This document shows positions 631 to 63,104 of a stretch of DNA of 64,000 nt, piece after piece. Each line of letters opens with the position of its first letter. Position 1 is the stretch's first letter. The translations under genes and the position numbers were made by a program. The stretch comes from Chiloscyllium plagiosum (Eukaryota), in NCBI RefSeq assembly GCF_004010195.1, contig NC_057754.1, forward strand, positions 1,756,306 to 1,820,305, read 5' to 3'. The notes below the pieces were generated by a model, which did not search any database, was not told the origin of the DNA, and saw nothing but the letters and a program-made list of their open reading frames with translations.

Positions 631-3600
631 ATGTTCCATGTTTCAATGTTCCATGTTCCAATGTTCCAAGTTCTGTGTTCCATTTTCAATGTTCCATGTT
701 CTATGTTTCGATGTTCCATGTTCTATATTCCATGTTCTATGATCCATGTTCTATATTCCATGTTCTGTGTTCTATGTTTCGATGTTCCATGTTCTATGTC
801 ACATGTTCTATGTTCTGTGTTTCATGCTGGATGTTCCATGTTCTGTTGTCCATGTTCTATGTTCCATGTTCCAATGTTCCATGGTCTGCGTTCCATGTTC
901 CATGTTTCGATGTTCGATGTTCTATGTTCCATGTTTTTATGTTCCATGTTTCGATGTTCCATGTTTCGATGTTCTATGTTCTATGTTGGATGTTCTGTTG
1001 TCCATGTCCTATGTTCCATGTTCTGTGTTCCATGTTTTGATGTTCCATGCTTCGGTGTTCCCTGTTCTGTGATCCATGTTCTATGTTCCATGCTCTGTGT
1101 TCCATGTTTTGATGTTGCATGCTCTATGTTCCATGTTCTATGTTGCATGTTCTAAGTTCCATGTTTTAATGTTCCATGTCTGTGTTCCATGTTTCAAAGT
1201 TCCATGTGTTATGTTCCATTATCTGTGTTCCATGTTCCATATTTCAATGTTCGATGTTCTATGATCCATGTTTCGATGTTTCATCTTTCGATGTTCCCTG
1301 TTCTTTGTTCCATGTTTTGATGTCCCATGCTCTATGTTCCATGTTCTATGTTCCACATTCGATGTTCCATGTTTCAAGGTTCCATGTTCAATGTCCCATG
1401 TTCTGTTGACCATGTTTTACGTTCCATGTTCTGTGTTCCACATTCCAATGTTCCATGTTCTATGTTCCATGTTTCAATGTTCCATGTTCTATATTTCATG
1501 TTCTTTGTTCCATGTTCCGATGTTCCATATTCTATGTTCCATGTTCTGTATTCCAAGTTTCAATGTTCCATGTTCCATTTTACATGTTCTATGTTCCACG
1601 TTCTATATTCCATGTTCTATGTTCCATGTTTCAATTTCCCATGCTCTATGTTCCATGTTCTGTGTTCAGTGTTCGATGTTCCATGTTTTGCTGTTCCATG
1701 TTTCAATGTTCTATGTTCTTTGTTCCATGTTTGGATGTCCCATCCTCTATGTTTAACGCTCTGTGTTCAATGTTCTATGTTCCATGTTTCAATGTTCCAT
1801 GCTTCGATGTTCTATGTTCTATGTTGCATGATCTGTGGTCCATATTCTATGTTCCATGTTCTGTTGTCCATGTCCTATGTTCCATGTTCTGTGTTCCATG
1901 ATCTATGTTCCATGCTTCGATGTTTCATGTTCTGTGGTCCATGATCTATGCTCCATGTTCTGTGTTCCATGTTTTGATGTCCCATGCTCTATGTTCCATG
2001 TTCTGTGTTCAATGTTCTATGTTCCATGTTTCTAAGATCCATGTTTTGATGTTCCATGTTTCGATGTTCTATGTTCTATGTTGCATGATCTGTGGTCCAT
2101 ATTCTATGTTCCATGTTCTGTTGTCCATGTCCTATGTTCCATGTTCTGTGTTCCATGTTTCGATGTTCCATGCTTCGATGTTTCATGTTCTGTGGTCCAT
2201 GTTATATGTTCCATGTTCTGTGTTCCATGTTTTGATGTCCCATGCTCTATGTTCCACGTTTCGATTTTCCATGTTCTATGTTCCATGTTCTGTGGTCCAC
2301 TTTCTATGTTCCATATTCTAAGTTCCATGTTATGCGTTCCATTTTCTATATTCTGTGGTGCATGTTCTGTGTTCCATGTTTCAATGTTCCATGGTCTATG
2401 TTCCATGTTTCAATCTCCCATGCTCTATGTTCCATGTTCTGTGTACGGTGTTCTATGTTCCATGTTTCGACATTTCGCATTTAAATGTTCGATGTTTTAT
2501 GTTCCATATTCTGTGTTCCATGTTCCATGTTTCGATGTTTGATGTTCTATGTTCCATGTTTCTATGTTCCATATTTTGATGTTCTATGTTCTATGTTTCA
2601 TCTTCTGTGGTCCATGTTCTATGTTCCATGTTCTGTTGTCCATGTCCTATGTTCCATGTTTTGTGTTCCATGTTTTGATGTTCTATGCTTTGATATTCCC
2701 TATTCTGTGGTCCATGTTTTATGTTCCATGCTCTGTGTTCCATGTTTTGATGTCCCATGTTTCGATGTTCCATGTTTCAATATTCCATGTTCTATGTTCC
2801 ATGTTTTAATGTTCCATGTTTTGATGTTCCATGTTCTATGTTACATGTTCTGTGTTCCATGTTTCAATGTTCCATGTTCTATGTTCCATGTTTTGTGTTC
2901 CATGTTTCAATGTTCCATGTTTTATCCATCATGATCTGTGTTCTATGCTTTGATGTTCCATGTTTTGATGTTCCATGTTTCGATGTTCCATGTTCTATGT
3001 TCCATGTTCTGTGGTCCACGTTCTATTTTCCATGTTCTATGTTCCATGTCATGTGTTCGTTCTATTTTCCATGTTCTATGTTCCATGTCATGTGTTCCAT
3101 GCTTTGATGTTCCATGTTCAATATTCTATGTTCTGTGTTCCATGTTTCAATGTTCCATGTTTCGATCTCCCATGCTCTATGTTCCATGATTTGTGTTCGA
3201 TGTTCTACGCTCTGTGTTTCGATGCTCCACGTTACAATGTTTCATGTTTTCTGTTCCATGCTTTGATGTCCCATGCTTTATGTTCCATGTTCTGTGTTCG
3301 ATGTTCTATGTTCCATGTTTTGATGTTCCATGTTGCATGTTCTGTGTTCCATGTTTCGATGTTCAATGTTCTGTGTTCCATGTTCTATGTTCCATGTTTG
3401 GATGTTCAATGTTTCGATGTTCCATCTTCTATGTTCTGTGTTCTGTGGTCCATGTTCTGTGTTTCATGTTCTATGATCCATGTTTTGATGTTCCATGTTT
3501 GATTACCATCTTCTATGATCCATGTTCTGTGGTCCATGTTCTATGTTCCATGTTATACGTTCCTTGTTCTATGTTCCATGTTTCGATGTTTCATGTTCTG

Positions 3601-6600
3601 TGTTCGATGTTCGGTGTTCCATGTTTCAATGTTCCATGTTCTATGTTCCATGTTCTCTGTTCCATGTTCTATATTCCATGTTTTGATGTTCCATGTTGTT
3701 TTAAAAAAAATTCTCAAGGTCAGGTTCGTAGGAGAGTATATTCCATGTTTTGATGTTCCATGTGTTGATGTTTCATGTTTTGAGTTTCATGGTCTATATT
3801 TCATGTTCTGTGTTCCATATTTCAATTTTGCGTGTTCTATGTTCCATGTTCTGTGTTCCATGTTCCATGTTTGGATGTTCAATGTTTTGATGTTCCATCT
3901 TCTATGTTCCGTGTTCTGTGGTCCATGTTCTGTGTTTCATGTTGTATGTTCCATGTTTCGATGTTCCATGTTCTGTGTTCGATGTTCTGTGTTCCATGTT
4001 TCAATGTTACATGTTCTGTGTTCCATGCTCTATGTTCCATGTTGTATGTTCCATGTTTCGATGTCCCATGCTCTATGTTCTATGTTCTGTGTTTGATGTT
4101 CTATGCTCCATGTCTTGATGTTCCATGTTTCAATGTTCCATGTTCTATGTTCCTTGTTCTATGTTCCATGTTTCAATGTAACATGTTTCAATGTTCCATG
4201 TTCTATGTTCTATGTTTCGATGTTCCATGTTGTATGTTCCATGTTTCAATATCCCATGCTCTATGTACCATTTTCTGTGTTCGATGTTCTATGTTCCATG
4301 TTTCAATATTCCATGGTCTATGTTCCATGTTCTGTGTTCCATGCTTCGATGTTCCATGTTCTATATTCCATGTTTCGATGTTTCATGTTTCATTGTTCCA
4401 TGTTCTATCCTTCATCATCTGTGTTCCATGTTTCAATGTTCCATGGGCTATGTTTCATTTTCTTTGTTCCATGTTCTGTGTTCCATGTTCGATGTTCCAT
4501 GATCTATCTTCCATATGTACATTTTCCATGTTCTGTGTTCCATGTTCTATGTTCCATGTTGCGATGTTCCACGTTTTGATTTTCCATGTTCTATGTTCCA
4601 TGTTCTGTGGTCCATGTTCCACGTTCCATATTCTAAGTTCCATGTTCTGTGTTCCATGTTCTGTGTTCTGTGGTCTAGGTTCTGTGTTCCATGTTTCAAT
4701 CTTCCATGTTCGATATTCCATGTTTCGATCTTTCATGCTCTATGTTCCATGTTCTGTGTTCGATGTTCTATGATCCATGTTTCGACATTTTATGTTTCAA
4801 TATTCCAGGTTTTATGTTCCATATTCTGTGTTCCATGTTCCATGTTTCAATGTGCGATGTTCTTTGTTCCATGTTTCGATGTTCCATGTTTCGATGTTCC
4901 ATGTTCTATGTTTCATGTTCTGTGTTCCATGATCTATGTTCCATGATCTGTGGTCCATGTTTTATGTTCCATGTTTCAATGTTCCACATTCTATGTTCCA
5001 CGTTTCGATCTCCCATGTTCTATGTTCCATGTTTCAACATTTCGCATTTCAATGTTCGATGTTTTATGTTCCATATTCTGTGTTCCATGTTCCATGTTTC
5101 GATGTTTGATGTTTTATGTTCCATATTCTCTGTTCCATGTTCCATGTTTCGATGTTTGATGTTCTATGTTCCATGTTTCTATGTTCCATATTTTGATGTT
5201 CTATGTTCTATGTTCCATCTTCTGTGGTCCATGTTCTATGTTCCATGTTCTGTTGTCCATGTCCTATGTTCCATGTTTTGATGTTCTATGCTTCGATGTT
5301 CCCTGTTCTGTGGTCCATGTTTTATGTTCCATGCTCTGTGTTCCATGTTTTGATGTCCCATGTTTCGATGTTCCATGTTTCAATGTTCCATGTTTTAATG
5401 TTCCATGTTTTGATGTTCCTTGTTCTATGTTCCATGTTTTGATGTTCCATGTTCTGTGTTCCATGTTCTATGTTCCATGTTGCGATGTTCCATGTTTCGA
5501 TGTTCCATGTTCTATGTTCCATGTTATGTGGTCCACGTTCTACTTTCCATGTTCTATGTTCCATGTCATGTGTTCCATGCTTTGATGTTCCATGTTAATA
5601 TTCCATGTTATGTGTTCCATGTTTCAATGTTCCATTTTCTATGTTCCATGTTTCGATCTCCCATGCTCTATGTTCCATGATTTGTGTTCGATGTTCTACG
5701 CTCTATGTTTCGATGCTCCACGTTACAATGTTTCATGTTTTATGTTCCATGCTTTGATGTCCCATGCTTTATGTTCCATGTTCTGTGTTCGATGTTCTAT
5801 GTTCCAAGTTTTGATGTTCCATGTTGCATGTTCTGTGTTCCATGTTTCGATGTTCCATGTTCTGTGTTCCATGTTCTATGTTCCATGTTTGGATGTTCAA
5901 TGTTTCGATGTTCCATGTTCTATGTTCCGTGTTCTGTGGTCCATGTTCTATGTTCCATGTTTGGATGTTCAATGTTTTGATATTCCATCTTCTATGTTCC
6001 GTGTTCTGTGGTCCATGTTCTGTGTTCCATGCTCTATGTTCCATGTTCAGCATTACATGTTCTGTGTTCCACATTCTATGTTCCATGTTCTATATTCCAT
6101 GTTTTGACGTTCCATGTTTTGATGTTCCATGTTCTGTGTTCCATGTTTCGATGTCCCGTGCACTATGTTCCATGTTCTGTGTTCCATGTTCTATGTTCCA
6201 GGTTTCGATTTTCCATGTTTCAATGTTCCATGTTCTATGTTCCATGTTCTGTGTTCCATGTTTCGATGTCCCATGTTCTATGATCCCTGTTTTGATGTTC
6301 CATGTTTCAATGTTCCAAGTTCTATGTTCCACATTCTGTAGTCCATGTTCTATGTTCCAAGTTCTGTGTTCCATGTTCTGATGTTCCATTTTCTATGTTC
6401 CATGTTCTGAGTTCCATGTTTCAATGTTCCATATTCAATGCTCCATATTCAGTGTTCCATGTTCTGATGTTCCATGTTCTGAGTTCAATGTTTCAATGTT
6501 CTGTGTTCTGTGTTCCATGTTCTATGTTCCATGTTCTGTGTTCCATGTTTCGATGTTCCATGCTCTATGTTCCATGTTCTGTGTTCCATGTTTTGATGTT

Positions 6601-6718
6601 CTACGTTCTATGTTCCATGATTCGATGTTCCATTTATCAATGTTCTATGTTCTATGTTCGATGTTCTATGTTCCATGTTTCGATATTCCATGTTCTATGT
6701 TACATGTTCTATGTTCCA
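631..6718. repeat. Degenerate 7/8-bp satellite (ATGTTCC / ATGTTCT / ATGTTTC[A/G])n, at least 6.1 kb, running into a gap
   Basis: Directly visible tandem units throughout; + strand strongly T-rich. Confidence 0.98.
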
Positions 6719-7218
6719 NNNNNNNNNNNNNNNNNNNNNNNNNNNNNNNNNNNNNNNNNNNNNNNNNNNNNNNNNNNNNNNNNNNNNNNNNNNNNNNNNN
6801 NNNNNNNNNNNNNNNNNNNNNNNNNNNNNNNNNNNNNNNNNNNNNNNNNNNNNNNNNNNNNNNNNNNNNNNNNNNNNNNNNNNNNNNNNNNNNNNNNNNN
6901 NNNNNNNNNNNNNNNNNNNNNNNNNNNNNNNNNNNNNNNNNNNNNNNNNNNNNNNNNNNNNNNNNNNNNNNNNNNNNNNNNNNNNNNNNNNNNNNNNNNN
7001 NNNNNNNNNNNNNNNNNNNNNNNNNNNNNNNNNNNNNNNNNNNNNNNNNNNNNNNNNNNNNNNNNNNNNNNNNNNNNNNNNNNNNNNNNNNNNNNNNNNN
7101 NNNNNNNNNNNNNNNNNNNNNNNNNNNNNNNNNNNNNNNNNNNNNNNNNNNNNNNNNNNNNNNNNNNNNNNNNNNNNNNNNNNNNNNNNNNNNNNNNNNN
7201 NNNNNNNNNNNNNNNNNN
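6719..7218. other. Assembly gap (500 N)
   Basis: N run. Confidence 1.
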
Positions 7219-12493: not shown

Positions 12494-13185
12494 CTGAAAA
12501 TGTGTTGCTGGAAAAGCGCAGCAGGTCAGGCAGCATCCAAGGAGCAGGAGAATTGACGTTTCGGGCATGAACCCTTCTTCAGGATTGAGATAAATGTGTC
12601 CAGCAGGCTAAGATAAAAGGTAGGGAAGGAGGGACTTGGGGGAGGGGCGTTGGAAATGCGATAGGTGGAAGGAGGTCAAGGTGAGGGTGATAGGCTGGAG
12701 TGGGGGTGGGGACGGAGAGGTCAGGAAGAAGATTGTAGGTTAGGAAGGCGGTGCTGAGTTCGAGGGATTTGACTGAGACAAGGTGGAGGGGAGGGGAAAT
12801 GAGGAAACTGGAGAAATCTGAGTTCATCCCTTGTGGTTGGAGGGTTCCCAGGTGGAAGATGAGTCGCTCTTCCTCCAACCATCGTGTTGCTATGGTCTGG
12901 CGATGGAGGAGTCCAAGGACCTGCATGTCCTTGGTGGAGTGGGAGGGGGAGTTGAAGTGTTGAGCCATGGGGTGTTGGGTTGGTTGGTCCGGGTGTCCTA
13001 GAGGTGTTCTCTGAAACGTTCTGCAAGTAGGCGGCCTGTCTCCCCAATATAGAGGAGGCCACATCGGGTGCAGTCCAGGTGTCCCAAAGGTGTTCTCTGA
13101 AACGTTCCGCAAGTAGGCGGCCTGTCTCCCCAATATAGAGGAGGCCACATCGGATGCAGTTCTCTGAAACGTTCCGCAAGTAGGA
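12494..13185 (-). mobile_element. 5'-truncated Penelope-like element: GIY-YIG endonuclease C-terminus and terminal repeat with hammerhead motif
   Basis: CIRCGLLYIGETGRLLAERFREHL and AQHFNSPSHS..RWLEEERLIFHLGTLQPQGMN; flanked by near-identical ACAGTAT(A/G)TAGACAG (12479-12493 / 13186-13200). Confidence 0.9.
12551..12586 (-). ncRNA. Minimal hammerhead ribozyme motif (GUC site)
   Basis: Minus: AATC-CTGAAGA-A-GGGT TCAT GCCC-GAAA-CGTC-AATT. Confidence 0.65.
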
Positions 13186-15370: not shown

Positions 15371-15493
15371 GATGAAGGGCTTTTGCCTGAAACGTCGATT
15401 TTCCTGATCTTCGGATGCTGCCTGACCTGTGCTTTTCCAGCACCACTCTGATCTAAACTCTGGTTTCCAGCATCAGCAGACCTCACTTTTGCC
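15371..15493 (+). mobile_element. Penelope-like terminal repeat fragment inserted in the CR1 3' region
   Basis: GATGAAGGGCTTTTGCCTGAAACGTCGATT...; ATATGGATGAA occurs at both junctions. Confidence 0.8.
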
Positions 15494-16199
15494 TATATGG
15501 ATGAAAATAGAATAGTGTAGGTTAGATAGGCTTCAGATTGGTTTCACAGGTTGGCGCAACATCGAGGGCAAAAGAGCCTGTACTGTGCTATAATATTTTA
15601 TGTTCTATGTTTTTGTCCAGTAATAGCATGAATAGGCACTGTCACTGATTTCACTCAAGTACTTCAAAAAGCACACAATTTCTCTTTAGCAATCAGGACT
15701 CCCTTTTGCAATATCAAAGCACTGCTAATGAGCAAAGAGAGGCTTCAAATATGTACACTCGACCTGGAAGTATACTGTCTCTATAGCAACTCTGATTGCT
15801 GGGTTGCAGTTGATGGTATTCTTTGAAAAATGTATTCATTTTCTCAAGTGCATCTTTCACTTATTATAAGTAATTTATGTTTAAATGTTGCTCTATATAA
15901 ATTTTTACACATATCCCGGTTGTAACAATATCCAGACTGCAACCTCTCAACCTTGTAGATGCAAGACAAAGTCCTGAGAAGATGCTCAAGTGCAGAAATA
16001 AAATCACGTTTTAACCTTGACAAGGCTGTGACAATATAGACAAACCTAGTCCATTGAATGGTAAAGTTGGAAGCAAGCATTTTTCCAGATAAACCTGCGA
16101 GGTAAGTTTAATAAAAACAGTTGGGGAATCTCCTACCTTAAAAACAATGTCAGGTGATTATTCCTGATGTGAACATTTAATTTTATGTCGTAATAGCAA

Positions 16200-16748
16200 T
16201 GACCGATTAAACATGACTCTTTACTAGATAACTGACAGTTAATTAACATGCTGAAATGAGTGTTCCCCATTAACAAATATACTAAAATTACAGTCAGCAG
16301 TGAATTAAAATGCTAAAACTGCAATTAGCAGTTATTTAACACAAACAGAAATTGCTGGAGAAGCTCAGCAGGTCTGGCAGCATCTGTGCAGAGAAATCCA
16401 AGTTAATGTTTCAGGTCCGGTGACCCTTCCTCAGAACTGCTGAACTGCAGAACTCTCCAGTTCTGAGGAAGGGTCACCAAATCCAAAGTATTAACTCTGA
16501 TTTCCCTTCACAGATACTGCCAGACTTGCTGAGCTTTTCCAACAATTTCTGTTTTTGTTTCTGATTTACAACATATGCAGTTCTTTTGGGTTTTAAAGAT
16601 GCTAAAACTAAAGTTGGCAGTTAATTCACACACTAAAACTCCAGTTAGCAGTTAACTAAAATGCTAAAACTGCAGTTAGCAATTAATTAATGTGCTAAAA
16701 CTGCAGTTAACAATTAAACTAACATGCTAAAACCGCAGTTAGCAGTTG
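16200..16748. repeat. Degenerate ~31-bp minisatellite (GCTAAAACTGCAGTTAGCAATTAATTAATGT-like), split by a Penelope fold-back element
   Basis: About five clear units at 16600-16748 and more decayed units at 16200-16340. Confidence 0.8.
16342..16595. mobile_element. Inverted pair of Penelope-like terminal repeats
   Basis: AAACAGAAATTGCTGGAGAAGCTCAGC..CCTTCCTCAGAACTG mirrored by CAGTTCTGAGGAAGG..GCTGAGCTTTTCCAACAATTTCTGTTT; hammerhead motif at 16401-16438 (-). Confidence 0.8.
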
Positions 16749-17302
16749 AAGCACTCTGACTCTGAGTTATGCAGTCAAACCACATTAAAGAGCTTACTTG
16801 AATTCACCATCTGGACTGACACATCTTTGTAGAACTAAGGCTTATCCTTATCAGTGGTGCTGTTTTCGGATGAGACCTTAAAATATGACTTCATCAGACT
16901 GTTAAGATGAACGAAATAGAAGCCGTGAGACTTTTAGGAATGTAGGAACAGGAGGAGGCCAATCAGCCCCTCAAGCCTACTTCACTTTTCAGTAAGGTCA
17001 TGGTTCATCTGTGGCCTAACTCCATATGTGTGCCTTGGGACAATATCCCTTGCTTAATAAATATTTGTCTATTTAGATTTAAATTTAGCAACTGAATAAG
17101 AATCAACCACTATTTGAACTAGAGAGTTCCAAACTTCCACTACTCTTTCTACATAGCAGTGCTTTCTAAGATCTCTCCTGAATGGCCAGGTCCTAATTCA
17201 TAAACAATGCCCCCTGGTTCTAGAATCTTCAACCAGTGGAATTGATTTATCTTTATTTATGCTGTATTACCCCTCCTAAAATCTTGAGACCTTGATAGGA
17301 TC

Positions 17303-19565
17303 TCCTGGCTGCGAGGTGAAGCCCAGCGTGGACTCCGGAGATTCCCAGCCGTGAGGTGAAGCCCAGCATGGACTCGGAGATTCCCGGCAACGAGGTGAAG
17401 CCCAGCATGGACTCTGAGATTCCCGGCCTCGAGGTGAAGTCCAGCGTGGACTCGGAGATTCCCAGCCTCGAGGTGAAGCCCAGCATGGACACGGAGATTC
17501 CTAGCCTCGAGGTGATGCCCAGCGCGGACTCAGAGATTCCCAGCCTCGAGGTGAAGCCCAGCGTGGACACGGAGATTCCCAGCCTCGAGGTGATGCCCAG
17601 CGCGGACTCGGAGATTCCCAGCCTCGAGGTGATGCCCAGCATGGACTCGGAGATTCCCAGCTGTGAGGTGCAGCCCAGCGTGGACTCGGAGATTCCCAGC
17701 TGTGAGGTGCAGCCCAGCGTGGACTCGGAGATTCCCAGCCTCGAGGTGAAGTCCAGCGTGGACACGGAGTTTCGCAGCCTCGAGGTGAAGCCCAGTGTGG
17801 ACACGGAGATTCCCGGCCTCGAGGTGAAGCCCAGCGTGGACCAGGAGATTCCCAGCATCGAGGTGAAGCCCAGCGTGGACTCGGAGATTCGCAGCCTCAA
17901 GGTGAAGCCCAGCGCGGACTCGGAGACTCCCAGCCTCGAGGTGAAGCCCAGCGCAGACTCGGAGATTCCCAGCCTCGAGGTGAAGCCCAGCGTGGACTCC
18001 GGAGATTCCCAGTCTCGAGGTGAAACTCAGCGCGGACTCGGAGACGCCCAGCCTCGAGGTGAAGCCCAGCGCGGACTCGGAGATTCCCAGCCTCGAGGTG
18101 AAGCCCAGCGTGGACTCCGGAGATTCCCAGTCTCGAGGTGAAACTCAGCGCGGACTCGGAGATTCCCAGCCTCGAGGTGAAGCCCAGCGTGGACTCAGGG
18201 ATTCCCGGCCACGAGGTGAAGCCCAGCGCGGACTCGGAGATTCCCAGCCTTGAGGTGAAGCCAAGCATGGACTCGGGGATTGCCGGCCACGAGGTGAAGC
18301 CCAGCGCGGACTTGGAGATTCGCAGTCTCAAGGTGAAGCCCAGCGTGGACTCGGAGATTCGTAGCCTCGAGGTGAAGCCTAGCCTGGACGCAGAGATTCC
18401 CAGCCTCGAGGTGAAGCCCAGTGCCGACCCGAGGGCTCCCAGCCTCGAGGTGAAGCCCAGCGTGGACACGGTGATTCCTGGCCTCGAGGTGAAGCCCAGT
18501 GCGGTCCTGAGGGCTCCCAGCCTCGAGGTGAAGCCCAGTGCCGACCCGAGGGCTCCCAGCCTCGAGGTGAAGCCCAGCGTGGACACGGGGATTCCTGGCC
18601 TCGAGGTGAAGCCCAGTAGGGTCCTGAGGGCACCCAGCCTCAAGGTGAAACCCAGTGCGGTCCTGAGGGCACCCAGCCTCGAGGTGAAACCCAGTGCGGA
18701 TCGGGGATTCTGGCCTCGAGGTGAAGCCCGGTGCGGTCCTGAGGGCACCCAGCCTCGAGGTGAAGCCCAGTGCGGTCCTGAGGGCACCCAGCCTCGAGGT
18801 GAAACCTAGTGCGGACCGGGGATTCTGGCCTCGAGGTGAAGCCCGGTGCGGTCCTGAGGGCACCCAGCCTCGAGGTGAAGCCCAGTGCGGTCCTGAGGGC
18901 ACCCAGCCTCGAGGTGAAGCCCAGTGCGGTCCTGAGGGTAGCCAGCATCAATGTGAAACCCAGTGCGGATCGGGGATTCCGGCCTCAAGGTGAAGCCCAG
19001 TGTGGCCCTGAGGGCACCCAGCCTCGAGGTGAAGCCCAGTGTGGTCCTGAGGGCACCCAGACTCAAGGTGAAACCTAGTGCGGTCCTGAGGGCACCCAGC
19101 CTCGAGGTGAAGCCCAGTGCGGATTGGGGATTCCGGCCTCAAGGTGAAGCCCAGTGTGGTCCTGAGGGCACCCAGCCTCGAGGTGAAGCCCAGTGTGGTC
19201 CTGAGGGCACCCAGCCTCAAGGTGAAACTTAGTGCGGTCCTGAGGGCACCCAGCCTCGAGGTGAAGCCCAGTGCGATCCTGAGGGCACCCAGCCTCATGG
19301 TGAAACCCAGTGCGGATCAGGGATTCCGGCCTCATGGTGAAACCCAGTGCGGATCAGGGATTCCGGCCTCGAGGTGAAACCCAGTGTGGATCGGGGATTC
19401 CGGCCTCAAGGTGAAACCCAGTGTGGATCAGGGATTCCGGCCTCGAGGTGAAACCCAGTGTGGATCGGGGATTCCGGCCTCAAGGTGAAGCCCAGCACAG
19501 ACTCAAGGATTCCCGGCTTCAAGATGAAGCCAGCGCAGACCTGGGTTGAAACCATGCGTGGACTC
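17303..19565. repeat. CpG-rich 38-40 bp VNTR, ~58 units (GAGATTCCCAGCCTCGAGGTGAAGCCCAGCGTGGACTCG and variants)
   Basis: Directly visible; conserved core CCTCGAGGTGAAGCCCAG. Confidence 0.97.
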
Positions 19566-19682
19566 GTCTGCTCTGCCTGTTTTTCTCATCTCTTTCTCTG
19601 CTTTAGAAGGAGTGTAATGCTGAACTTATAACTTTTCTAATTTATATGTAAGATTTTGTACCAAAGATGTCACAAATATTAT

Positions 19683-20066
19683 GGCACAGACAGCAGCACA
19701 CAGAGGGCTAACACCTTAAACACATTATCTGAGCAGACACCAATTGTTAAAGTTAACCTGAGAATGTAACTTTTAAAAAAAGTTTTGTGATTTACATACG
19801 AAAGAAGTGAAGCTAACATGATCATTCTAACAGATGAGAGACTTAACAAACAATCAAGGAATTTTTCAATGTATAATTTCAGTTACATCACACTGTAAAC
19901 TTTTACTATAAATTCTGTGTCTTACAATTGTGTACTCCACAACAACCTGATGAAGGAGCAGCGCTCTGAAAGCTAGTGCTTCCAATTAAACCTGTTGGAC
20001 TATAACCTGGTGTGTGATTTTTAAACTTTGAACACCCCAGTCCAACACCGGCATCTCCAAATCATG
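19683..20066 (+). mobile_element. Penelope-like 3' fragment/terminal repeat (second family) with decayed hammerhead motif
   Basis: CCTGATGAAGGAGCAGCGCTCTGAAAGCTAGTG..CCTGTTGGACTATAACCTGGTG..CCAGTCCAACACCGGCATCTCC, shared with the copies near 41308, 42106 and 62913. Confidence 0.8.
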
Positions 20067-22388
20067 GCTGGAAATAGTGACTTTGTACACTTTACAATGT
20101 ACTCATGTATCCCTGCACTTAAGTACGTGACAATAAAATCGAATTCTAATTCTAGATCACCCTTAATCTTCTAAATTCTAGAGGATAAAGGACTAATTTG
20201 TCCAAACTCTCCCTATAATATAAGTACAGGTATCATCCTTGTAAACTTGCACTGAGCTCCCCCTAGGGCCAAAACATCGTTCCTAAGGTGTGGTGCTGAG
20301 TTCTGCTCACTGTGGGATCTAACTAGAATTTTGTATAATTTATATAACTGCAGCATAACATCGCCATTCCTGTATTCTGACCCTTTATATTTGATGACCA
20401 GCATTCCATTAGTCTTCTTGATTATTTTCAGAATCTGTCTGTGCCATTTTAAAGAGCTATGCATCTGAACCCCCAAATCTTGCTGGATATCCTCTGTATT
20501 TAACTTGTTGCCTTCTGAAAAAAACCCCGGTCTATCTTTATTCGGTCTGAAATGGATAATCTCACACTTGCTTATATTAAAATCCATCTGCCACTGCTGT
20601 GCACTTTCACCTAATCTATCAATATCTTATAGTAATTTTATGCTGTTGTCAACACTGTCTACGATGTTGCTGAATATTTTTGTCACCAGCAAGTTCAGAT
20701 ATCTGACTTCTAATGCTATGCAAGTCGTTAATGAATACCATGAATAACTGAGGCCCAAACACAGATCACTCCGGGACGCCACTTGTCCTAGTCTGCCTAT
20801 TTGAGTACTTTTCAGTGGAGGAATGGTGGGGAGAAGGGAGGGGGTGCTCCTTGGGGTCCTGACCAACATTCTTCCCTCAGACAACACCATCCGAAACAGA
20901 TTAATACTTATTTATTTTATTTGCTGTCTGTGGGAAGTTAGCTTGCAGTTTTGCCTTAATAATAACAGCAACACCAATAGCACTTTTACAAAAGAAATTG
21001 TTGGCTGTGAAACGCTTTGGGCTAACATAAGAATATAATTTGCACCATATAAATATAAAATTTACTTCTATAGAAAAATAATCAAGAGCAACTAATTGGC
21101 CGTATTATTTTTGCACTTTGCAAAAAAAAGTTCCATGATTGCTTCCTTGTGATAAGTGCCATTATCATGTTGCTAAATTAATTCCTTGGACCTCGTAATG
21201 ATGTAAAATGGCAGCAATAAATAAGTACAAAATGATTCTATTAAAGATGTCAAGATGAACATTAAAAGTGTACTTACATATTTCTTACACTTTCCCTTTT
21301 CTTAACGTTGTGGGTTGGCTGAGTCAAATTGGCTTACAATGATTTTCTGGTATTAATTTATTAAACAGTTTTGAAACTCAGAAGTATTCTAAATCGTAGC
21401 ATGGCCTGAGATTGACTCGCATCTTAAACTTAACTGCAACACTTGTTGGTAATTTAGCCAGGAGACAACATTTCACTTCAGTTCTAATTGAAATTTTACT
21501 GTGTAAATAAATGGTAACAATGCTGTTGGAAAATGCAGAACAAAGGAATTTCATGTGAATGTGTTAAATTGTGTGTGTGCGTATTTGCAAATTCTAAATT
21601 TTGGCATTGTTTAGAATTGTGTTGAGCATAGGAATTGGCATCGGCAATTTAGCCCATTGAACCTGCCTCACCGTTTAGTAAGATCGTGGCCAATTGAATA
21701 CTTCAGTGCGTTTTCTTGCACTTTCCCCATAATACTCATGCCATTGATAATCGGAAATTTATCAGTCTCTATTTTAAATATACTCAAAGATTGAGCTTTC
21801 ATAGTTCCCTGAGTAGAATATTCCAAAGATTCAAAGCCCTCTGAGTAAAAGAATTTCTTTTTATCTCAGTCCTAAATGGCATTCTCTTTAATTTGGAATT
21901 GTGCTCTTTATTTCTAGACTCACCAACCAAGAGAAACAACTTACCGGCATCTACCCTGTCCTTCCATTTAGTGTTTTGCAATTTTCAATGAGAGCACCTC
22001 TCATTCTTTGAAAGCGCAAAGAATACAGGCTCAATCGCTCTTTGTAGGACAGTTCGGCCATCCCGGGAACAGGTCTGGTGAACCTTTGTTGCACTTCCTG
22101 TTAGGCAATTGTTATGGACCAGACAAACCTCCCCGCCTCAAAATACATGAAGAAGATAGCCTAGACCCTAATTTTTTTTGTCATTTTAAAAGTAAGTGTT
22201 GCGTTCCAGAAAATTCAATTGGTCGAACAACTTGATTTCAAACAAATGCAGTTTACTTTGACACTACTGTTAAAATACAGACAAAATTAAAAGAAAAAAA
22301 AGAATTGGCGTAACTGTAACTCTGTCAAAAGGCTTAATAAAATGATATATACATACACACTACTAATTAACTGTTTTAACATAATAAG

Positions 22389-40160: not shown

Positions 40161-41307
40161 AGGTCTCTTTTATATGGTCCACAGCTAAAGAAAAAGGAAT
40201 CCATTCAGATTACTGGAGATGACCTGAAGGAAATGTTTCATATGGCTGTGAAGAAACAGTGGTAAGCAAACCAAATCGGTTTCCAGGAAATTTGACAAGA
40301 AGGAAGAATGTGCTATTATTCCTTTGTATTGCATTCCAGCGGGTTTGCCAAGAACATGTACATTCAGCACTGGCAACATTTCACAGTCATAGATGACTTA
40401 CAAGTGTGTGACTGAAGGCTAGTTATTTCAGCACCTTCTGGGAAGACAATCTTTGAAAGGATACACCAGGTATGCTTAGGCTTTCACAGGGGTACAGCAA
40501 GCATCCAGTCAGCAATGTGGTGGTCAGAGGTTTTAAGAGTTTGAAGTTCACAAAACTCATCGTAAAATCCATGATTCTTAGAATTGACAGGACTACAAAA
40601 CAGTCCTAACACTTTTGAAGAAAATTCAGTTGACAGATATCAGCAAAGTTGGTGAGAAGCTGCAAACCTAGAGAAAAAGAATGGAAAGTTCAACCCTCAA
40701 ATCTTTAATGGAAGCTGTTCAGACAGCAAAACACCATGGTGAACAAATTAATGCAGCAAATTTGACATTGCTGTCAGATGATCAGACAACACAAGCTCAC
40801 AAGCAACATTTCAATCTCTTGTCTTCTGAAGAAGAATTATTAGTACCAATGACATAAATAATGGTAAGTAAGCAGAAATCCTCCAATAACAATACTGAGG
40901 GTATGAAGATACTGACTCACCAGGAAGATATCCAGAGGGCAAATGAAAACATCCAACCTATTCAACAAATTGAAGTAAAGCACTTACGTACTTCAACACA
41001 GATGCATTAGATTGAGAATGGAGATTGTATTGCACAAATTAACGATGAGCTGCTGTGACTCCATGAAAGACAGATCAACATTCATAGATTCAAGATACAG
41101 TTCAGAAGAAATTACCTGGCTCAGAAGTCTAGGATTATGAAAAAATGGTGTTCCATAATGAACATACTTGAAATTAAAAGACATCAGACTATGTTTTGTA
41201 GCAAATACTTGAGTTAACAAGGAAAGAAAATTCAGAAAATTATGGGTAGATGAAAAAGAGGATTAGATCAACTATTGAGTTTAGAAGGAATGCATCCTTC
41301 ATGAAGT

Positions 41308-41430
41308 CAAAAGTCACACAACACCAGGTTATAGTCCAACAGGTTTATTTGAAAACACTAGCTTTCGGAGTGCTACCCCTTTATCAGGTGCTAGTACACT
41401 CCAGTCCAACACTGGCATCTCCACATCATG
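41308..41430. mobile_element. Penelope-like terminal repeat, partly inverted
   Basis: Minus-strand copy with decayed hammerhead motif joined to a plus-strand CCAGTCCAACACTGGCATCTCCACATCAT end; flanks TCCTTCATGAAG / TCCTCCATGAAG. Confidence 0.78.
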
Positions 41431-42105: not shown

Positions 42106-42239
42106 GAAGTCACTACTTCACCTGACGAAGGAGCAGTGCTCCGAAAGCTTGTGATTTCAAATAAAGCTGTTGGACTACAACCTGGTGTTATGTGACATCT
42201 GACCTTGTCTACCCCAGCCTAACACCAGCAACTCCACAC
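42106..42239 (+). mobile_element. Penelope-like terminal repeat with 16-bp TSD
   Basis: CAATCTGATGATGTCA at 42090-42105 and 42240-42255. Confidence 0.85.
42118..42154 (+). ncRNA. Minimal hammerhead ribozyme motif (CUU site)
   Basis: TCAC-CTGACGA-A-GGAGC AGT GCTCC-GAAA-GCTT-GTGA; TCAC pairs with GTGA. Confidence 0.65.
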
Positions 42240-58877: not shown

Positions 58878-59086
58878 GTCAAGAGTGTGGTGCTGGAAAA
58901 GCAAAGCAGGTCAAGCAGCATCCGAGGAGCAGGAAAATTGACATTTTGGGCAAAAACCCTTCATCAGTTTTGAGGCTTTTGCCCGAAATGTCGATTTTCC
59001 TGCTCCTTGGATACTGCCTGACCTGCTGTGCTTTTCTAGCACCACAGTCTTGACTCTAATCTCCAGCATCTGCACTACTCACTTTT
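58878..59086. mobile_element. Inverted pair of Penelope-like terminal repeats with ~20-bp TSD
   Basis: GTCAAGAGTGTGGTGCTGGAAAAGC.. mirrored by ..GCTTTTCTAGCACCACAGTCTTGAC; flanks TGCCTAAAGA(TG/CA)TAAATAGA. Confidence 0.85.
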
Positions 59087-59529
59087 GCCTAAAGACATAA
59101 ATAGACCAGTTCTTACTTTGCATTAGACAACTACGTGTTCACTGTGTTTGAGTCCAGAGATGATAAGGCACCTGTGGGACCTTTTCAGCAGAAAATAAAG
59201 TGCAGGTGATGTAAGGTGTTTGAGAGTTTTGGAGTAAGCTTGAGGCCAAATAGAAGGTCAAGGTTCACTGATTTGGGATAACAGAGGAGATTGTGTTGTA
59301 GGAGAGTCTGTGGCCAGTTTTCCAATGGATGCAAAGATGGTGAGGAGTATAAGGAGAAGGGAATAAACCCTGGTCATAGTCTGACATTTTGACTTTGGGT
59401 AGAGTCTTTTTGGTACTGTGGAAAGATTTAAATTTATATCTTAAATTTGAGTTAAATGTGCACAGATGAGGAAGATAAGAGGCTGAAGTTGAGCTTTTCA
59501 GAAGTGAAGTGAAATGGGTGGTGATGGTG

Positions 59530-59917
59530 ATAGAGAAAAGAAGGTTTAGGGGTGACTTGATTGAGGTGTACAAGATGATTAGGGGGTTAGATAGGGTTGA
59601 CAGTGTGAACCTTTTCCCGCGTATGGAGTCGGGTATTACAAGGGGGCATAGCTTTAAATTAAGGGGGGGTAGATATAGGACTGATGTTAGGGGTAGGTTC
59701 TTCACTCAGCGAGTCGTAAGTTCATGGAATGCCCTGCCAGTAGCAGTGGTGGACTCTCCCTCTTTATGGGCATTTAAGCGGGCATTGGATTGGTATATGG
59801 AGGATAGTGGGTTAGTATAGGTTAGGTGGGCTTGGATCGGCGCAACATCGAGGGCCAAAGGGCCTGTACTGCGCTGTATTCTTCTATGTTCTATGTTCTA
59901 TGTTCTATGTTCTATGT
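59530..59917 (+). mobile_element. Relatively young CR1 3' fragment with (TTCTATG)5 tail
   Basis: Open frame EKRRFRGDLIEVYKMIRGLDRVD..TRGHSFKL..FFTQRVVSSWNALP; perfect heptamer tail 59882-59916. Confidence 0.93.
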
Positions 59918-62072: not shown

Positions 62073-62912
62073 ACTACCTTCAGCCTACTAGCAACTTAGT
62101 GACAACAGAGACAGGCAGGGTGTACAATCAGCATTAGACTCAATCTCACCAGTTTCCACATTGCTGTGTTAACTTAAAATTGCTCTGAGTGAATCTTAGT
62201 ATACACCGCAAAGGGATTTCAGAATTATGCTCAATCCTGTCTAGCTTGCATTCATTGACAAAGCAAACATAGATAGCAAGGTGAGGAATGCTTACATGGG
62301 ATTTTCAGTCTGTGTGGCTCAGTCTGAGAAGGGGAAACCATTTCCATAGTGCTAGAGACTTCAAACGGCACGTGTCATTTTTATGTTCAGCAAATCCCAT
62401 TTCTAAAAGCATCCACAGTTTTGTTCCTGATATTCTTCATTCTGCTATCACCTCTCCCCTTCAATATATTCTACTTTTATTCTTCAGTAGAAGCACTGCA
62501 AAGGATCAAAAATAGGAAAATAAATTTTAAAAAGAAATCCATGGCAATAAACATAATACCATGAAGAAGTCAAACACCTTCTGGTTGGTAAGGAGTTTGT
62601 GTGTTTAAAGTGCTTTACACAGAAACACAAATGAAACCAGTTTTCAATGACGTCTTATTTTCTGAAAACTTGTATGGACAATACAAATATACTTGTAAAG
62701 TGACTGTAGTGAGCAGTGTAAAGCAATGCGACTTACAGGATAGCTGGATGAGGGGTAACTAGGATACGGCATTCTGCAAAACGAGACAGCCTATGATATC
62801 GCATGGAAAATATGCAGCTTCTTTCTCTCTCTCTCCCGCTCCCTGATGATAGGGGAGAAAAGAGAAATAAGTTTTGCTAGCCACAGAACATCAGTTACTT
62901 AGTCTAACATGC

Positions 62913-63104
62913 TTTGAAGATGCCGGTGTTGGATCGGGGTGCACAAAGTTAAAAATTACACAACACCAGGTTATAGTCCAACAGGTTTAATTGGAAGCCC
63001 TAGCTTTCAGAGCGCCACACCTGATGAAGGAGCGGCGCTCCGAAAGCTAGTGTACTTCCAATTAAACCTGTTGGACTATAACCTGGTGTTGTGAGATTTT
63101 TAAT
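62913..63104. mobile_element. Inverted pair of Penelope-like terminal repeats with perfect 14-bp TSD
   Basis: TTAGTCTAACATGC at 62899-62912 and 63105-63118; arms CACAACACCAGGTTATAGTCCAACAGGTTTAATTGGAAG / CTTCCAATTAAACCTGTTGGACTATAACCTGGTGTTGTG. Confidence 0.9.
63017..63053 (+). ncRNA. Minimal hammerhead ribozyme motif (CUA site), best-preserved copy
   Basis: ACAC-CTGATGA-A-GGAGC GGC GCTCC-GAAA-GCTA-GTGT; ACAC pairs with GTGT. Confidence 0.7.

Follow-up and report, generated by a model that had tools for sequence, protein, structure and literature searches.

A tandem-repeat insertion within a CR1 element

The window, i.e., the whole 64,000-nt stretch of DNA analyzed here, contains a gene-less insertion of 2.85 kb (17303–20154) which consists mainly of GC-rich 39-nt repeats and interrupts a minus-strand CR1 element. 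The 3' portion of this host (end of ORF2 and 3' UTR) occupies 16943–17302, and its decayed 5' portion (C-terminal region of the reverse transcriptase, RT) lies at 20159–20811, where orthologous contigs of all three organisms examined bridge the tail of the insertion and the flank. Once the block was removed, the C-terminus of the minus-strand ORF2 could be read in one frame across the site. When this de-blocked host was compared with CR1 copies in the window, two tblastn matches spanned the junction (23483–22899, E = 2.3e-24; 38038–37709, E = 8.6e-12), and a blastn match of the host to 51633–51443 also crossed the insertion site. GATC is present on the plus strand at both ends (17299–17302 and 20155–20158). 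However, sequence inspection shows that the element opens with the unit-like GATCTCCTGGC, and the two copies might therefore reflect 5' microhomology between the target and a repeat unit instead of a 4-nt duplication. The anatomy given in a preliminary description of this DNA, namely a block with GATC at both ends inside a continuous CR1, was therefore confirmed as real.

The same description had reported neither an RT nor a tRNA head, which agrees with our searches of this element, whose 5' end is missing: none of the 4 long ORFs inside it matched a Pfam family at the curated cut-off, and ARAGORN found no tRNA. No ORF2 remnant with endonuclease or RT was present in the 2.85 kb, though such an ORF could lie beyond the truncation, and no Pol III head derived from a small RNA (tRNA, 5S or 7SL) was found in the remaining part. 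Upstream of the array there is nothing but CR1, and the remaining copy has no 5' hexamer or Alu-like part. At the 3' end, a poly(A) tail is absent, and the element ends in a hairpin, AATAAA and ATTCTA repeats. Rfam showed no match at the gathering score anywhere in the window; 6 sub-threshold matches (microRNA, snoRNA and cis-element; E up to 1) within 16000–22000 were taken as chance.

Structure and history of the repeat array

TRF placed the array at 17312–19535, with a period of 39, 57.4 copies and 83% matches. Unit starts identified by a script numbered 58, and the 57 complete units were mostly 39 nt long (45), the others being 37 nt (9) or 40 nt (3). GC content reached 0.65 and the observed/expected CpG ratio was 0.64, compared with 0.28 elsewhere in the window, in good agreement with the ~58 CpG-rich 39-bp repeats noticed previously. 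The units were ordered non-randomly, the mean distance between them growing with their separation (5.9 at lag 1, 10.5 at lag 40), and the two ends of the array were made of distinct classes. The 5' class (17303–18408) comprises 39-nt units and three 40-nt units, and in the 3' classes (18409–19482) 37-nt units are interspersed among 39-nt units of another type, with duplicated blocks that have periods of 115, 117 and 74 nt. Degenerate terminal units follow at 19483–19566 and were also present in the orthologous contigs of the two related organisms. Because the element begins mid-unit inside the array, this copy appears to be truncated at its 5' end.

An identical partner was found for 10 of 57 units, and exact repeats of 102, 89 and 74 nt occurred within the array. 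The best duplicated blocks differed at 4/184, 4/162, 1/103 and 4/117 positions, which is at or below the divergence of the orthologous contigs (3.2% and 4.1%), although blocks picked as best-scoring are biased toward young ones. Several multi-unit blocks thus seem to postdate the insertion, part of the array having expanded at this locus. Another large array is located at 631–6718 of the window.

The period of 39 is divisible by 3, and the array has a reading frame that stays open for 273 codons. However, in the most open frame we counted 10 synonymous vs. 49 non-synonymous codon changes, and 12 of 57 units break the frame. On these counts a coding repeat was rejected, the repeat units being non-coding, and a retrocopy of a repeat-protein mRNA is disfavored. 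No protein of near length was related to the open frame; among longer proteins there was one match (35%), to an unrelated low-complexity protein. The repeat-unit pattern was absent from the viral contigs scanned.

A dispersed 3' region and a nested Penelope-type piece

Of 24 sequencing runs listed, 4 were used, namely 3 DNA runs and one single-cell RNA run. Contigs and reads from this organism (A) and two related organisms (B and C), in the 3 DNA runs, were compared with 19461–20660, which covers the last ~80 nt of the array, the tail and the right flank; joints, loose ends and allele differences are those listed from longer tables. The 3' part of about 180 nt belongs to a dispersed family at roughly 45–165 times single-copy depth in A, B and C. 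In all three runs, depth was 45–62x for the first segment of this region (19598–19669) and 117–166x for the second (20067–20137, measured in the bin 20101–20140). The preliminary description had called the 3' region short, AT-rich and unique. It is short and AT-rich, but from ~19598 on it is shared by the many dispersed copies that the same description anticipated.

Terminal repeat units reached 128x (A), 16x (B) and 41x (C) single-copy depth, the latter two being lower than the depth of the tail. Bin 19541–19580 was at 1.0–1.4x, so that copies matching this junction at 80% or above cannot be numerous. Between the array and the family region lie 30 pyrimidine-rich nt flanked by two directly repeated TCTGCT motifs (19567–19597, approximately single-copy depth), a stretch which is probably private to this insertion. 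It is absent from a second locus in organism C, where 19493 is joined to 19598 with 12 other letters (depth 33.3); the orthologous contig of C (depth 36.7) runs straight through 19493–19598. Among the listed joints, this was the only further locus linking a repeat unit to the tail. Because it does so, the repeat is not a single-locus sequence never connected to this 3' end elsewhere, a possibility that the preliminary description had raised against itself. In addition, a contig of organism A (depth 39, about 5x) carries 31-nt units that are not found in this array.

The 3' region is split by a nested piece (19670–20066) of very high depth, with copies elsewhere in the window at 41309–41430, 42120–42236 and 62908–63103. 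ATG is present at both ends (19667–19669 and 20064–20066), and 583–782 loose ends per DNA run were listed at each of 20065 and 20066. Based on these features, the piece starts near 19670 rather than at 19683 as first proposed, the presence of a nested fragment being upheld. Its assignment to Penelope is suggested by a hammerhead-type core motif at 19947–19971, which also occurs in two other window copies; the piece gave no Rfam match at the gathering score and contains no RT/GIY-YIG ORF. Joints from 19662 to 20071, 20073 or 20080 skip the piece in all three organisms (3, 6 and 7 contigs among those listed), showing that the family has copies without it. In single-cell RNA data (2% of the run, 3'-biased), most tail reads had the orientation of the AATAAA strand (11.3 vs. 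1.55); they derived from other copies, and no reads were found on 19461–19580. The indexed runs included no RNA run listed as containing the sequence, which is no measure of its expression.

The same insertion was present in A, B and C, with contigs bridging the tail and the flank, and is therefore old. No empty orthologous site was seen, as both relatives examined carry the insertion. A recent or polymorphic insertion was ruled out by the filled site in B and C, and an assembly artefact by contigs of three organisms that bridge the array end, the tail and the flank.

Terminal hairpin and a candidate LINE partner

The second segment of the family region ends in a stem-loop (20095–20129) and GTGACAATAAA (20127–20137, the sole exact match in the window). 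It is followed by a microsatellite tail (20138–20154) of one degenerate and two perfect ATTCTA units, so that the AATAAA and short tail described earlier are present, with the tail read in this register. The hairpin of this copy alone was not significant (z = −0.34). However, the three majority alleles listed between 20088 and 20140, in a table that contains 774 further differences besides those listed, each restore a base pair, and together they change the folding energy from −6.9 to −14.8 kcal/mol. Random triple substitutions did equally well in only 3 of 2000 trials, and shuffles in 2 of 1000. At 20097, 93–103 contigs had the majority allele.

Scanning metagenomes with the tail pattern returned 36 loci, none of which had a blastn match to the window; 6 were read upstream, and a LINE ORF was found only in a fish contig, L013. 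This contig encodes an ORF2 C-terminus with ALKBH8_N (E = 3e-11), and the ORF is followed by a 9-bp hairpin, the GTGACAATAAA end and an ATTCTG tail, but most of the letters in common were prescribed by the search pattern, and L013 is one of the 36 loci that it returned. About 230 nt, free of repeats, separate the ORF of L013 from the tail. Protein relatives of L013 belong to unnamed chordate clusters, one of which has ALKBH8_N on 22% of its members, and no longer homologue of the ORF was found. This LINE is a putative member of the Rex1/Babar clade; ALKBH8_N is not named in the excerpts of the papers checked for this label. The tail pattern was absent from the viral contigs and prokaryote genomes scanned, no shark LINE with this tail occurred in the viral, prokaryote and metagenome collections scanned, and tblastn found no Rex1-type ORF2 in the window. 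The comparison of ends supports the view that the terminal hairpin and tail resemble those of a fish LINE of a type other than the CR1s here, as the preliminary description had suspected when it likened this end to those of the Rex1/Babar type. The partner itself, which rests on L013 and its presumed clade, is probably of the Rex1/Babar type.

Origin of the insertion

The best overall explanation, to which we assign a probability of about 0.5, is a copy of a retroposon family whose mobile RNA bears the repeats and is moved by a tail-recognizing LINE. That the block is a retroposed family member is very probable, and RNA-mediated insertion is supported. The repeat units are likely to be part of the mobile unit, and the family is probably non-autonomous, a candidate reading based on a 5'-truncated copy. 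Target-primed reverse transcription, mobilization in trans and Pol II transcription would be expected for such an element. The family is dispersed, of low to moderate copy number and without coding capacity in its visible part, and its RNA would end in about 180 AT-rich nt that include the terminal stem-loop and CAATAAA and are closed by a short (ATTCTA)n tail. The hairpin may be bound in trans by a LINE recognizing its own 3' end, most likely Rex1/Babar, which would nick the CR1 at GATC and reverse-transcribe the family RNA from the tail. Copying would stop inside the GC-rich repeats, where pairing of a unit-like GATC with the target is conceivable. The units would belong to the mobile RNA in at least a small subfamily, the Penelope-type piece would have landed in the tail after insertion, and the array would keep changing in place by block duplication. 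This explanation is favored by the continuous CR1 with its GATC pair, the depth of both tail segments, the joints skipping the nested piece, the hairpin restored by majority alleles, the end of L013, the second unit-to-tail junction in C, the 31-nt units in A, the non-coding units and the strand bias of the tail reads. Against it speak the single further junction among the joints listed, the single-copy depth of bin 19541–19580, the repeat depth in B and C, the lack of a Rex1-type ORF2 in the window and of a shark LINE with this tail in the collections scanned, the way in which L013 was retrieved, the non-significant hairpin of this copy, the duplication of only 4 nt and the lack of an empty site in both relatives.

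Alternatively, a short LINE-tailed element with one or a few GC-rich seed units might have inserted here, with the 2.2-kb array growing afterwards and any SVA likeness confined to this copy. We consider this rather unlikely. In B and C the repeats were at lower depth than the tail, which is consistent with such growth, and the repeat values of both could stem from the orthologous array alone, but the 128x of A exceeds what 58 units give, and an array of 31-nt units exists elsewhere in A. Moreover, the depth test undercounts the array because only its last ~80 nt were compared, with 301 of 2127 array 31-mers matching them at 80%. Identical units, long exact repeats, block differences no greater than ortholog divergence and the presence of another large array in the window also favor local growth, and locally duplicating minisatellites derived from transposable elements (TEs) are common according to the available part of one report (PMC3389668). 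Yet the blocks were picked as best-scoring, the insertion starts inside the array, and an excerpt of another report describes in-place remodelling for SVA and LAVA too (PMC4432496).

It is improbable that a full Rex1/Babar-type LINE, truncated in this copy before ORF2, supplied the array and tail as its long 3' UTR. The missing 5' end leaves room for an upstream ORF and the end matches that of the L013 LINE, but no ORF2 remnant exists in the 2.85 kb, and the repeat-free distance from ORF to tail in L013 is similar to the length of the family-shared part of this element, suggesting a borrowed UTR with repeats replacing the ORF. Least credible is a one-off event, in which either reverse transcription switched templates from a LINE tail to the transcript of a minisatellite, or the mRNA for a 13-residue repeat protein gave rise to a processed copy. 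The period divisible by 3, the open frame of 273 codons and the single-copy junction bin fit it; against it are the absence of coding constraint, of protein relatives other than the unrelated low-complexity match and of poly(A), as well as the second unit-to-tail junction.

For the repeat-bearing retroposon, then, the proposal of an SVA-like, probably 5'-truncated analogue holds with respect to RNA-mediated insertion, the dispersed 3' end and the non-coding repeats, while the long array was seen in this copy only. The element resembles SVA in general outline without being one. It is possible, though doubtful, that sharks hold independently evolved, VNTR-cored non-autonomous retroposons (subfamily units of 31, 37 and 39 nt) which borrowed a Rex1/Babar hairpin and move in trans. 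If true, this would be a vertebrate SVA analogue outside primates, driven by a tail-recognizing LINE instead of L1, and the role of the array in mobilization or silencing would be testable apart from Alu/L1 biology. If such elements arose twice in vertebrates, with different LINE partners, the GC-rich repeat core would be a recurring design, and a Rex1-dependent ORF-less derivative would extend the list of RTE, Ingi, Vingi and R2 given in the accessible part of PMC5786205. If the array reflects only local growth, the locus represents a common kind of minisatellite, seeded by a TE whose repeat family is either uncatalogued or simply unnamed.

Comparison with known systems

No published description of this element was found in the literature, Repbase and Dfam being outside that search. 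The comparisons below extend as far as the excerpts of the cited papers. VNTR composite retrotransposons (SVA, LAVA, PVA and FVA) have been described as specific to hominoid primates (PMC4432496). Like them, the shark element is non-coding and has a central GC-rich array in the 30–50 bp unit range, ordered unit types and DNA-level remodelling (PMC4432496, PMC5753468), besides a short non-repeat 3' domain and, presumably, LINE dependence. Unlike them, it shows no Alu-like part, hexamer head or SINE-R (its 5' end being missing), has a hairpin and microsatellite tail instead of poly(A), a 4-nt duplication and a partner that is not L1-like, and is apparently old, occurring in three species. No common origin is implied, and the long array is shown here for one copy.

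It has been reported that ends of stringent LINEs and SINEs typically carry a stem-loop (PMC3747384), as in shark HE1/HER1, elephant-shark SINE2-1_CM and Nematostella SINE2-5_NV with Rex1-24_NV (PMC3747384, PMC5499810), the sea-anemone pair being the only one listed with a Rex1 partner (PMC3747384). The element shares with such pairs a LINE-type 3' tail, a terminal stem-loop and a microsatellite end, but has no tRNA head in the remaining part, measures at least 2.4 kb without the nested piece and has a minisatellite body. Bipartite ORF-less non-autonomous LINEs (Bov-A, RIME and Vingi derivatives) likewise combine a LINE 3' end with the lack of an ORF, and Pol II transcription is expected for them; reports of them are confined to RTE, Ingi, Vingi and R2 and do not include a Rex1-type form with a repeat core (PMC5786205). 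Rex1/Babar LINEs are present in cartilaginous fish, with the highest levels in rays, and, as here, an oligonucleotide tail comes after their conserved 3' UTR (PMC13343379, PMC6274825). The element differs from them in having no ORF2. Its sequence match is to the single fish contig L013, whose clade assignment is putative. Finally, in TE-derived minisatellites a repeat unit also grows locally inside a TE copy (PMC3389668), but in the present case related units occur at other loci and are once joined to the same tail.

Insertion Site and Repeat Array

The element at 17303–20154, a 39-nt repeat array followed by a short 3′ part (the tail), is a real, old retroposon insertion. When this block was removed, the flanks read in a single frame as the decayed end of a minus-strand CR1 ORF2, and the junction was crossed both by protein matches to CR1 copies located elsewhere in the window (E values 2.3e-24 and 8.6e-12) and by a DNA match to another CR1 copy of the window. 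GATC was found on either side of the block; the first letters of the element are unit-like, so that microhomology, as well as duplication, may account for the left GATC. Neither RT nor tRNA nor any Rfam family was detected inside the block. The anatomy proposed in the preliminary description (tandem array, continuous CR1 and flanking GATC) was borne out. The repertoire of CR1 and Penelope elements would be consistent with a shark genome.

TRF reported a 39-nt period and 57.4 copies at 17312–19535. A script found 58 unit starts, and the 57 complete units were 39 nt (45 units), 37 nt (9 units) or 40 nt (3 units) long. Unit types follow an order: the 5′ half consists of one 39-nt unit class, and in the 3′ half 37-nt units are interspersed among those of a second 39-nt class; mean distance between units grew with lag (5.9 differences at lag 1, 10.5 at lag 40). 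CpG observed/expected was 0.64 in the block versus 0.28 in the rest of the window. CpG sites of the 5′ unit class (17314–18330) were changed in 16 of 138 cases versus 53 of 759 elsewhere, a modest 1.7-fold excess, suggestive of recent turnover or of low methylation in the germline. One reading frame through the repeats is open over 273 codons. A protein-coding repeat was rejected, as codon changes relative to the consensus were 49 non-synonymous and 10 synonymous (23 39-nt units among the first 26) and 12 of 57 units broke the frame; protein searches returned no true relative of this frame.

The window also contains a 6.1-kb array of ATGTTCC/ATGTTCT 7-mers (631–6718), which runs into an assembly gap (N at 6719–7218) and whose unit is similar to the (TTCTATG)n CR1 tails at 15553–15611 and 59882–59917. 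Bases 1–630 presumably represent the beginning of a CR1 ORF1 on the minus strand. Besides, a 222-nt fold-back (16338–16559, 81% self-complementary, with a minus-strand hammerhead-like core at 16434) is located within a 31-bp minisatellite (16233–16747), and related pieces occur at 12501–12589, 15371–15495 and 58886–59091.

A Dispersed 3′ Family

Public runs of three organisms contained the stretch: A, near-identical, and two relatives, B and C (best shares 0.61, 0.22 and 0.13, respectively). From each organism one contig set, and from A also a single-cell RNA run, was mapped at 80% likeness on 19461–20660; this interval comprises the final two to three repeat units together with the tail and right flank. 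Contigs of A showed 0 and 1 differences from the window. Contigs of B (3.2% divergence) and C (4.1%) bridged the array end to the nested piece, a Penelope-type insertion splitting the 3′ part, and the nested piece through the tail to the CR1 flank; judged from these contigs, both insertion and nested piece therefore predate the A/B/C split. No empty insertion site was seen in contigs of A, B or C.

Relative to single-copy (orthologous contigs with depths of about 7.5, 9 and 36 in A, B and C), summed depth was 46x, 45x and 62x at 19621–19660 and 117x, 127x and 166x at 20101–20140, figures that are rough and not equal to copy number. The numbers of contigs with the majority allele at 20097 (93, 97 and 103) agreed in kind. 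Joints from 19662 to 20071, 20073 or 20080, bypassing the nested piece, were present in 3 (A), 6 (B) and 7 (C) contigs, and other family copies therefore have an unbroken tail; one bypass contig in C had 28 letters versus 11 in the window copy. By these sequence data, the 3′ part, previously regarded as unique, belongs to a real dispersed family, which in each of the three organisms has depths within 45x–166x and copies free of the nested piece. The family is probably undescribed; it may already be present under an automatic name in the repeat libraries behind PMC13343379 or the shark genome papers.

The nested piece had been recognized earlier but with a different boundary: it starts at about 19670 and ends at 20066, with ATG at both ends. 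Further copies of it occur in the window (79–91% identity), and the matches of hundreds of contigs per run stop at 20065/20066. A hammerhead-type core at 19947–19971 suggests its assignment as Penelope-type; passages of 10.64898/2026.07.22.740005 describe such ribozymes in PLE terminal repeats. At the family level, reads of single-cell run X21 ended in poly(A) at 20002 (700 reads) and 20005 (914 reads), shortly 3′ of ATTAAA and just downstream of the core, and the Penelope-type family is therefore heavily transcribed and polyadenylated. Short inverted (fold-back) insertions of this family occur at 62908–63103 and 41304–41430.

Tail Hairpin and Candidate LINE Partner

In the window copy, the hairpin 5′ of AATAAA is weak (z −0.34). 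The majority alleles at 20097, 20116 and 20121 (those listed in 20088–20140) each restore one base pair, giving a stem at 20095–20129 and changing the energy from −6.9 to −14.8 kcal/mol; of 2000 random triple substitutions, 3 equalled this. A tail-pattern scan of a metagenome returned 36 loci, none of them shark-like. One contig, L013, carries the decayed end of a LINE ORF2 of fish type, in which ALKBH8_N was matched (E 3e-11); a UTR of about 230 nt follows, then a 9-bp hairpin, GTGACAATAAA and finally an ATTCTG tail. Most shared letters were fixed by the search pattern, unlike the upstream ORF, the paired arms and the ATTCT tail. Its peptides matched nothing within the window, so it is not of the window's CR1 kind; from its C-terminal motifs we tentatively assign it to the Rex1/Babar LINEs. 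Rex1 occurs in cartilaginous fish, most abundantly in rays, according to passages of PMC13343379. A shark partner LINE with this tail was not found in the window and metagenome loci. L013 and two further contigs of the same assembly, L003 and L018, look like fish-host DNA in which repeats end in TGACAATAAAG followed by a short tandem tail; of the three, L013 alone has a LINE ORF upstream.

In the 2% of the single-cell RNA run of A that was examined, the orientation with + strand poly(A) ends dominated among tail reads at 20101–20140 (11.3 versus 1.55 in the other orientation), and no reads fell on repeat units. At 20116, 13 of 14 such reads had the family allele, and the cleanest had 4 other differences; they therefore derive from other copies, and may be passengers in host transcripts.

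Origin of the Array

Evidence for the array as part of the mobile family is mixed. A short element whose array grew purely locally is a rather unlikely source of the block. Such growth is favored by terminal-unit depths of 16x (B) and 41x (C), which lie under the depth of the tail and for which the orthologous array could account by itself, although this test undercounts (301 of 2127 31-mers of the array match the mapped units at 80%). It is also favored by the most similar duplicated blocks, selected as best-scoring (4/184, 4/162, 1/103 and 4/117 differences), whose divergence does not exceed that between species, indicating that the array was also altered in place after insertion; two further blocks had 28/409 and 6/129 differences. 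However, terminal-unit depth in A was 128x, above what 58 units give, and a contig of A at depth 39 (about 5x) has 31-nt units foreign to the window array (nearest window match, 2 mismatches in 19). Also against it, a single-copy contig in C (depth 33.3) matched a repeat unit up to 19493 and, after 12 other letters (7 of 12 equal to the rest of the unit, by eye), the shared tail from 19598, the one second unit-to-tail junction among the joints listed; the orthologous contig (depth 36.7) was continuous across 19493–19598. The 30 nt missing from this second junction lie between TCTGCT repeats at 19567 and 19597, and their absence from other copies would explain the depth of only 1.0–1.4x at 19541–19580. 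That an autonomous LINE supplied the block as its 3′ UTR appears improbable, and a one-off chimera or retrocopy highly improbable.

Our preferred reading, to which we assign a probability of roughly 0.5 as a whole chain, is that a non-coding RNA containing both GC-rich repeats and a 3′ hairpin of LINE type would have been reverse transcribed in trans at a nick in the old CR1, with copying truncated within the array; a Penelope-type piece would later have inserted into the element, and the array would subsequently have been remodelled in place.

Comparison with Known Systems

A shark VNTR retroposon was not found in the full-text literature, with most subscription papers, Repbase and Dfam outside this scope, and passages of PMC4255032 on the coelacanth CoeG-SINE gave no structure for comparison. 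The block is no member of SVA/LAVA, the primate VNTR composite retrotransposons: it lacks poly(A), no Alu-like part was seen and the probable partner is different. The analogy drawn earlier is plausible and partly supported; its key claim would be that many copies carry long arrays and are mobilized by a named LINE. In outline the block is like SVA/LAVA as described in PMC4432496 and PMC5753468, with GC-rich units in a set order, a short 3′ domain, presumed dependence on a LINE and DNA-level remodelling. Further resemblances are to SINE/LINE pairs of the stringent type and to bipartite LINEs that lack an ORF, in passages of PMC3747384, PMC5786205 and PMC5499810.
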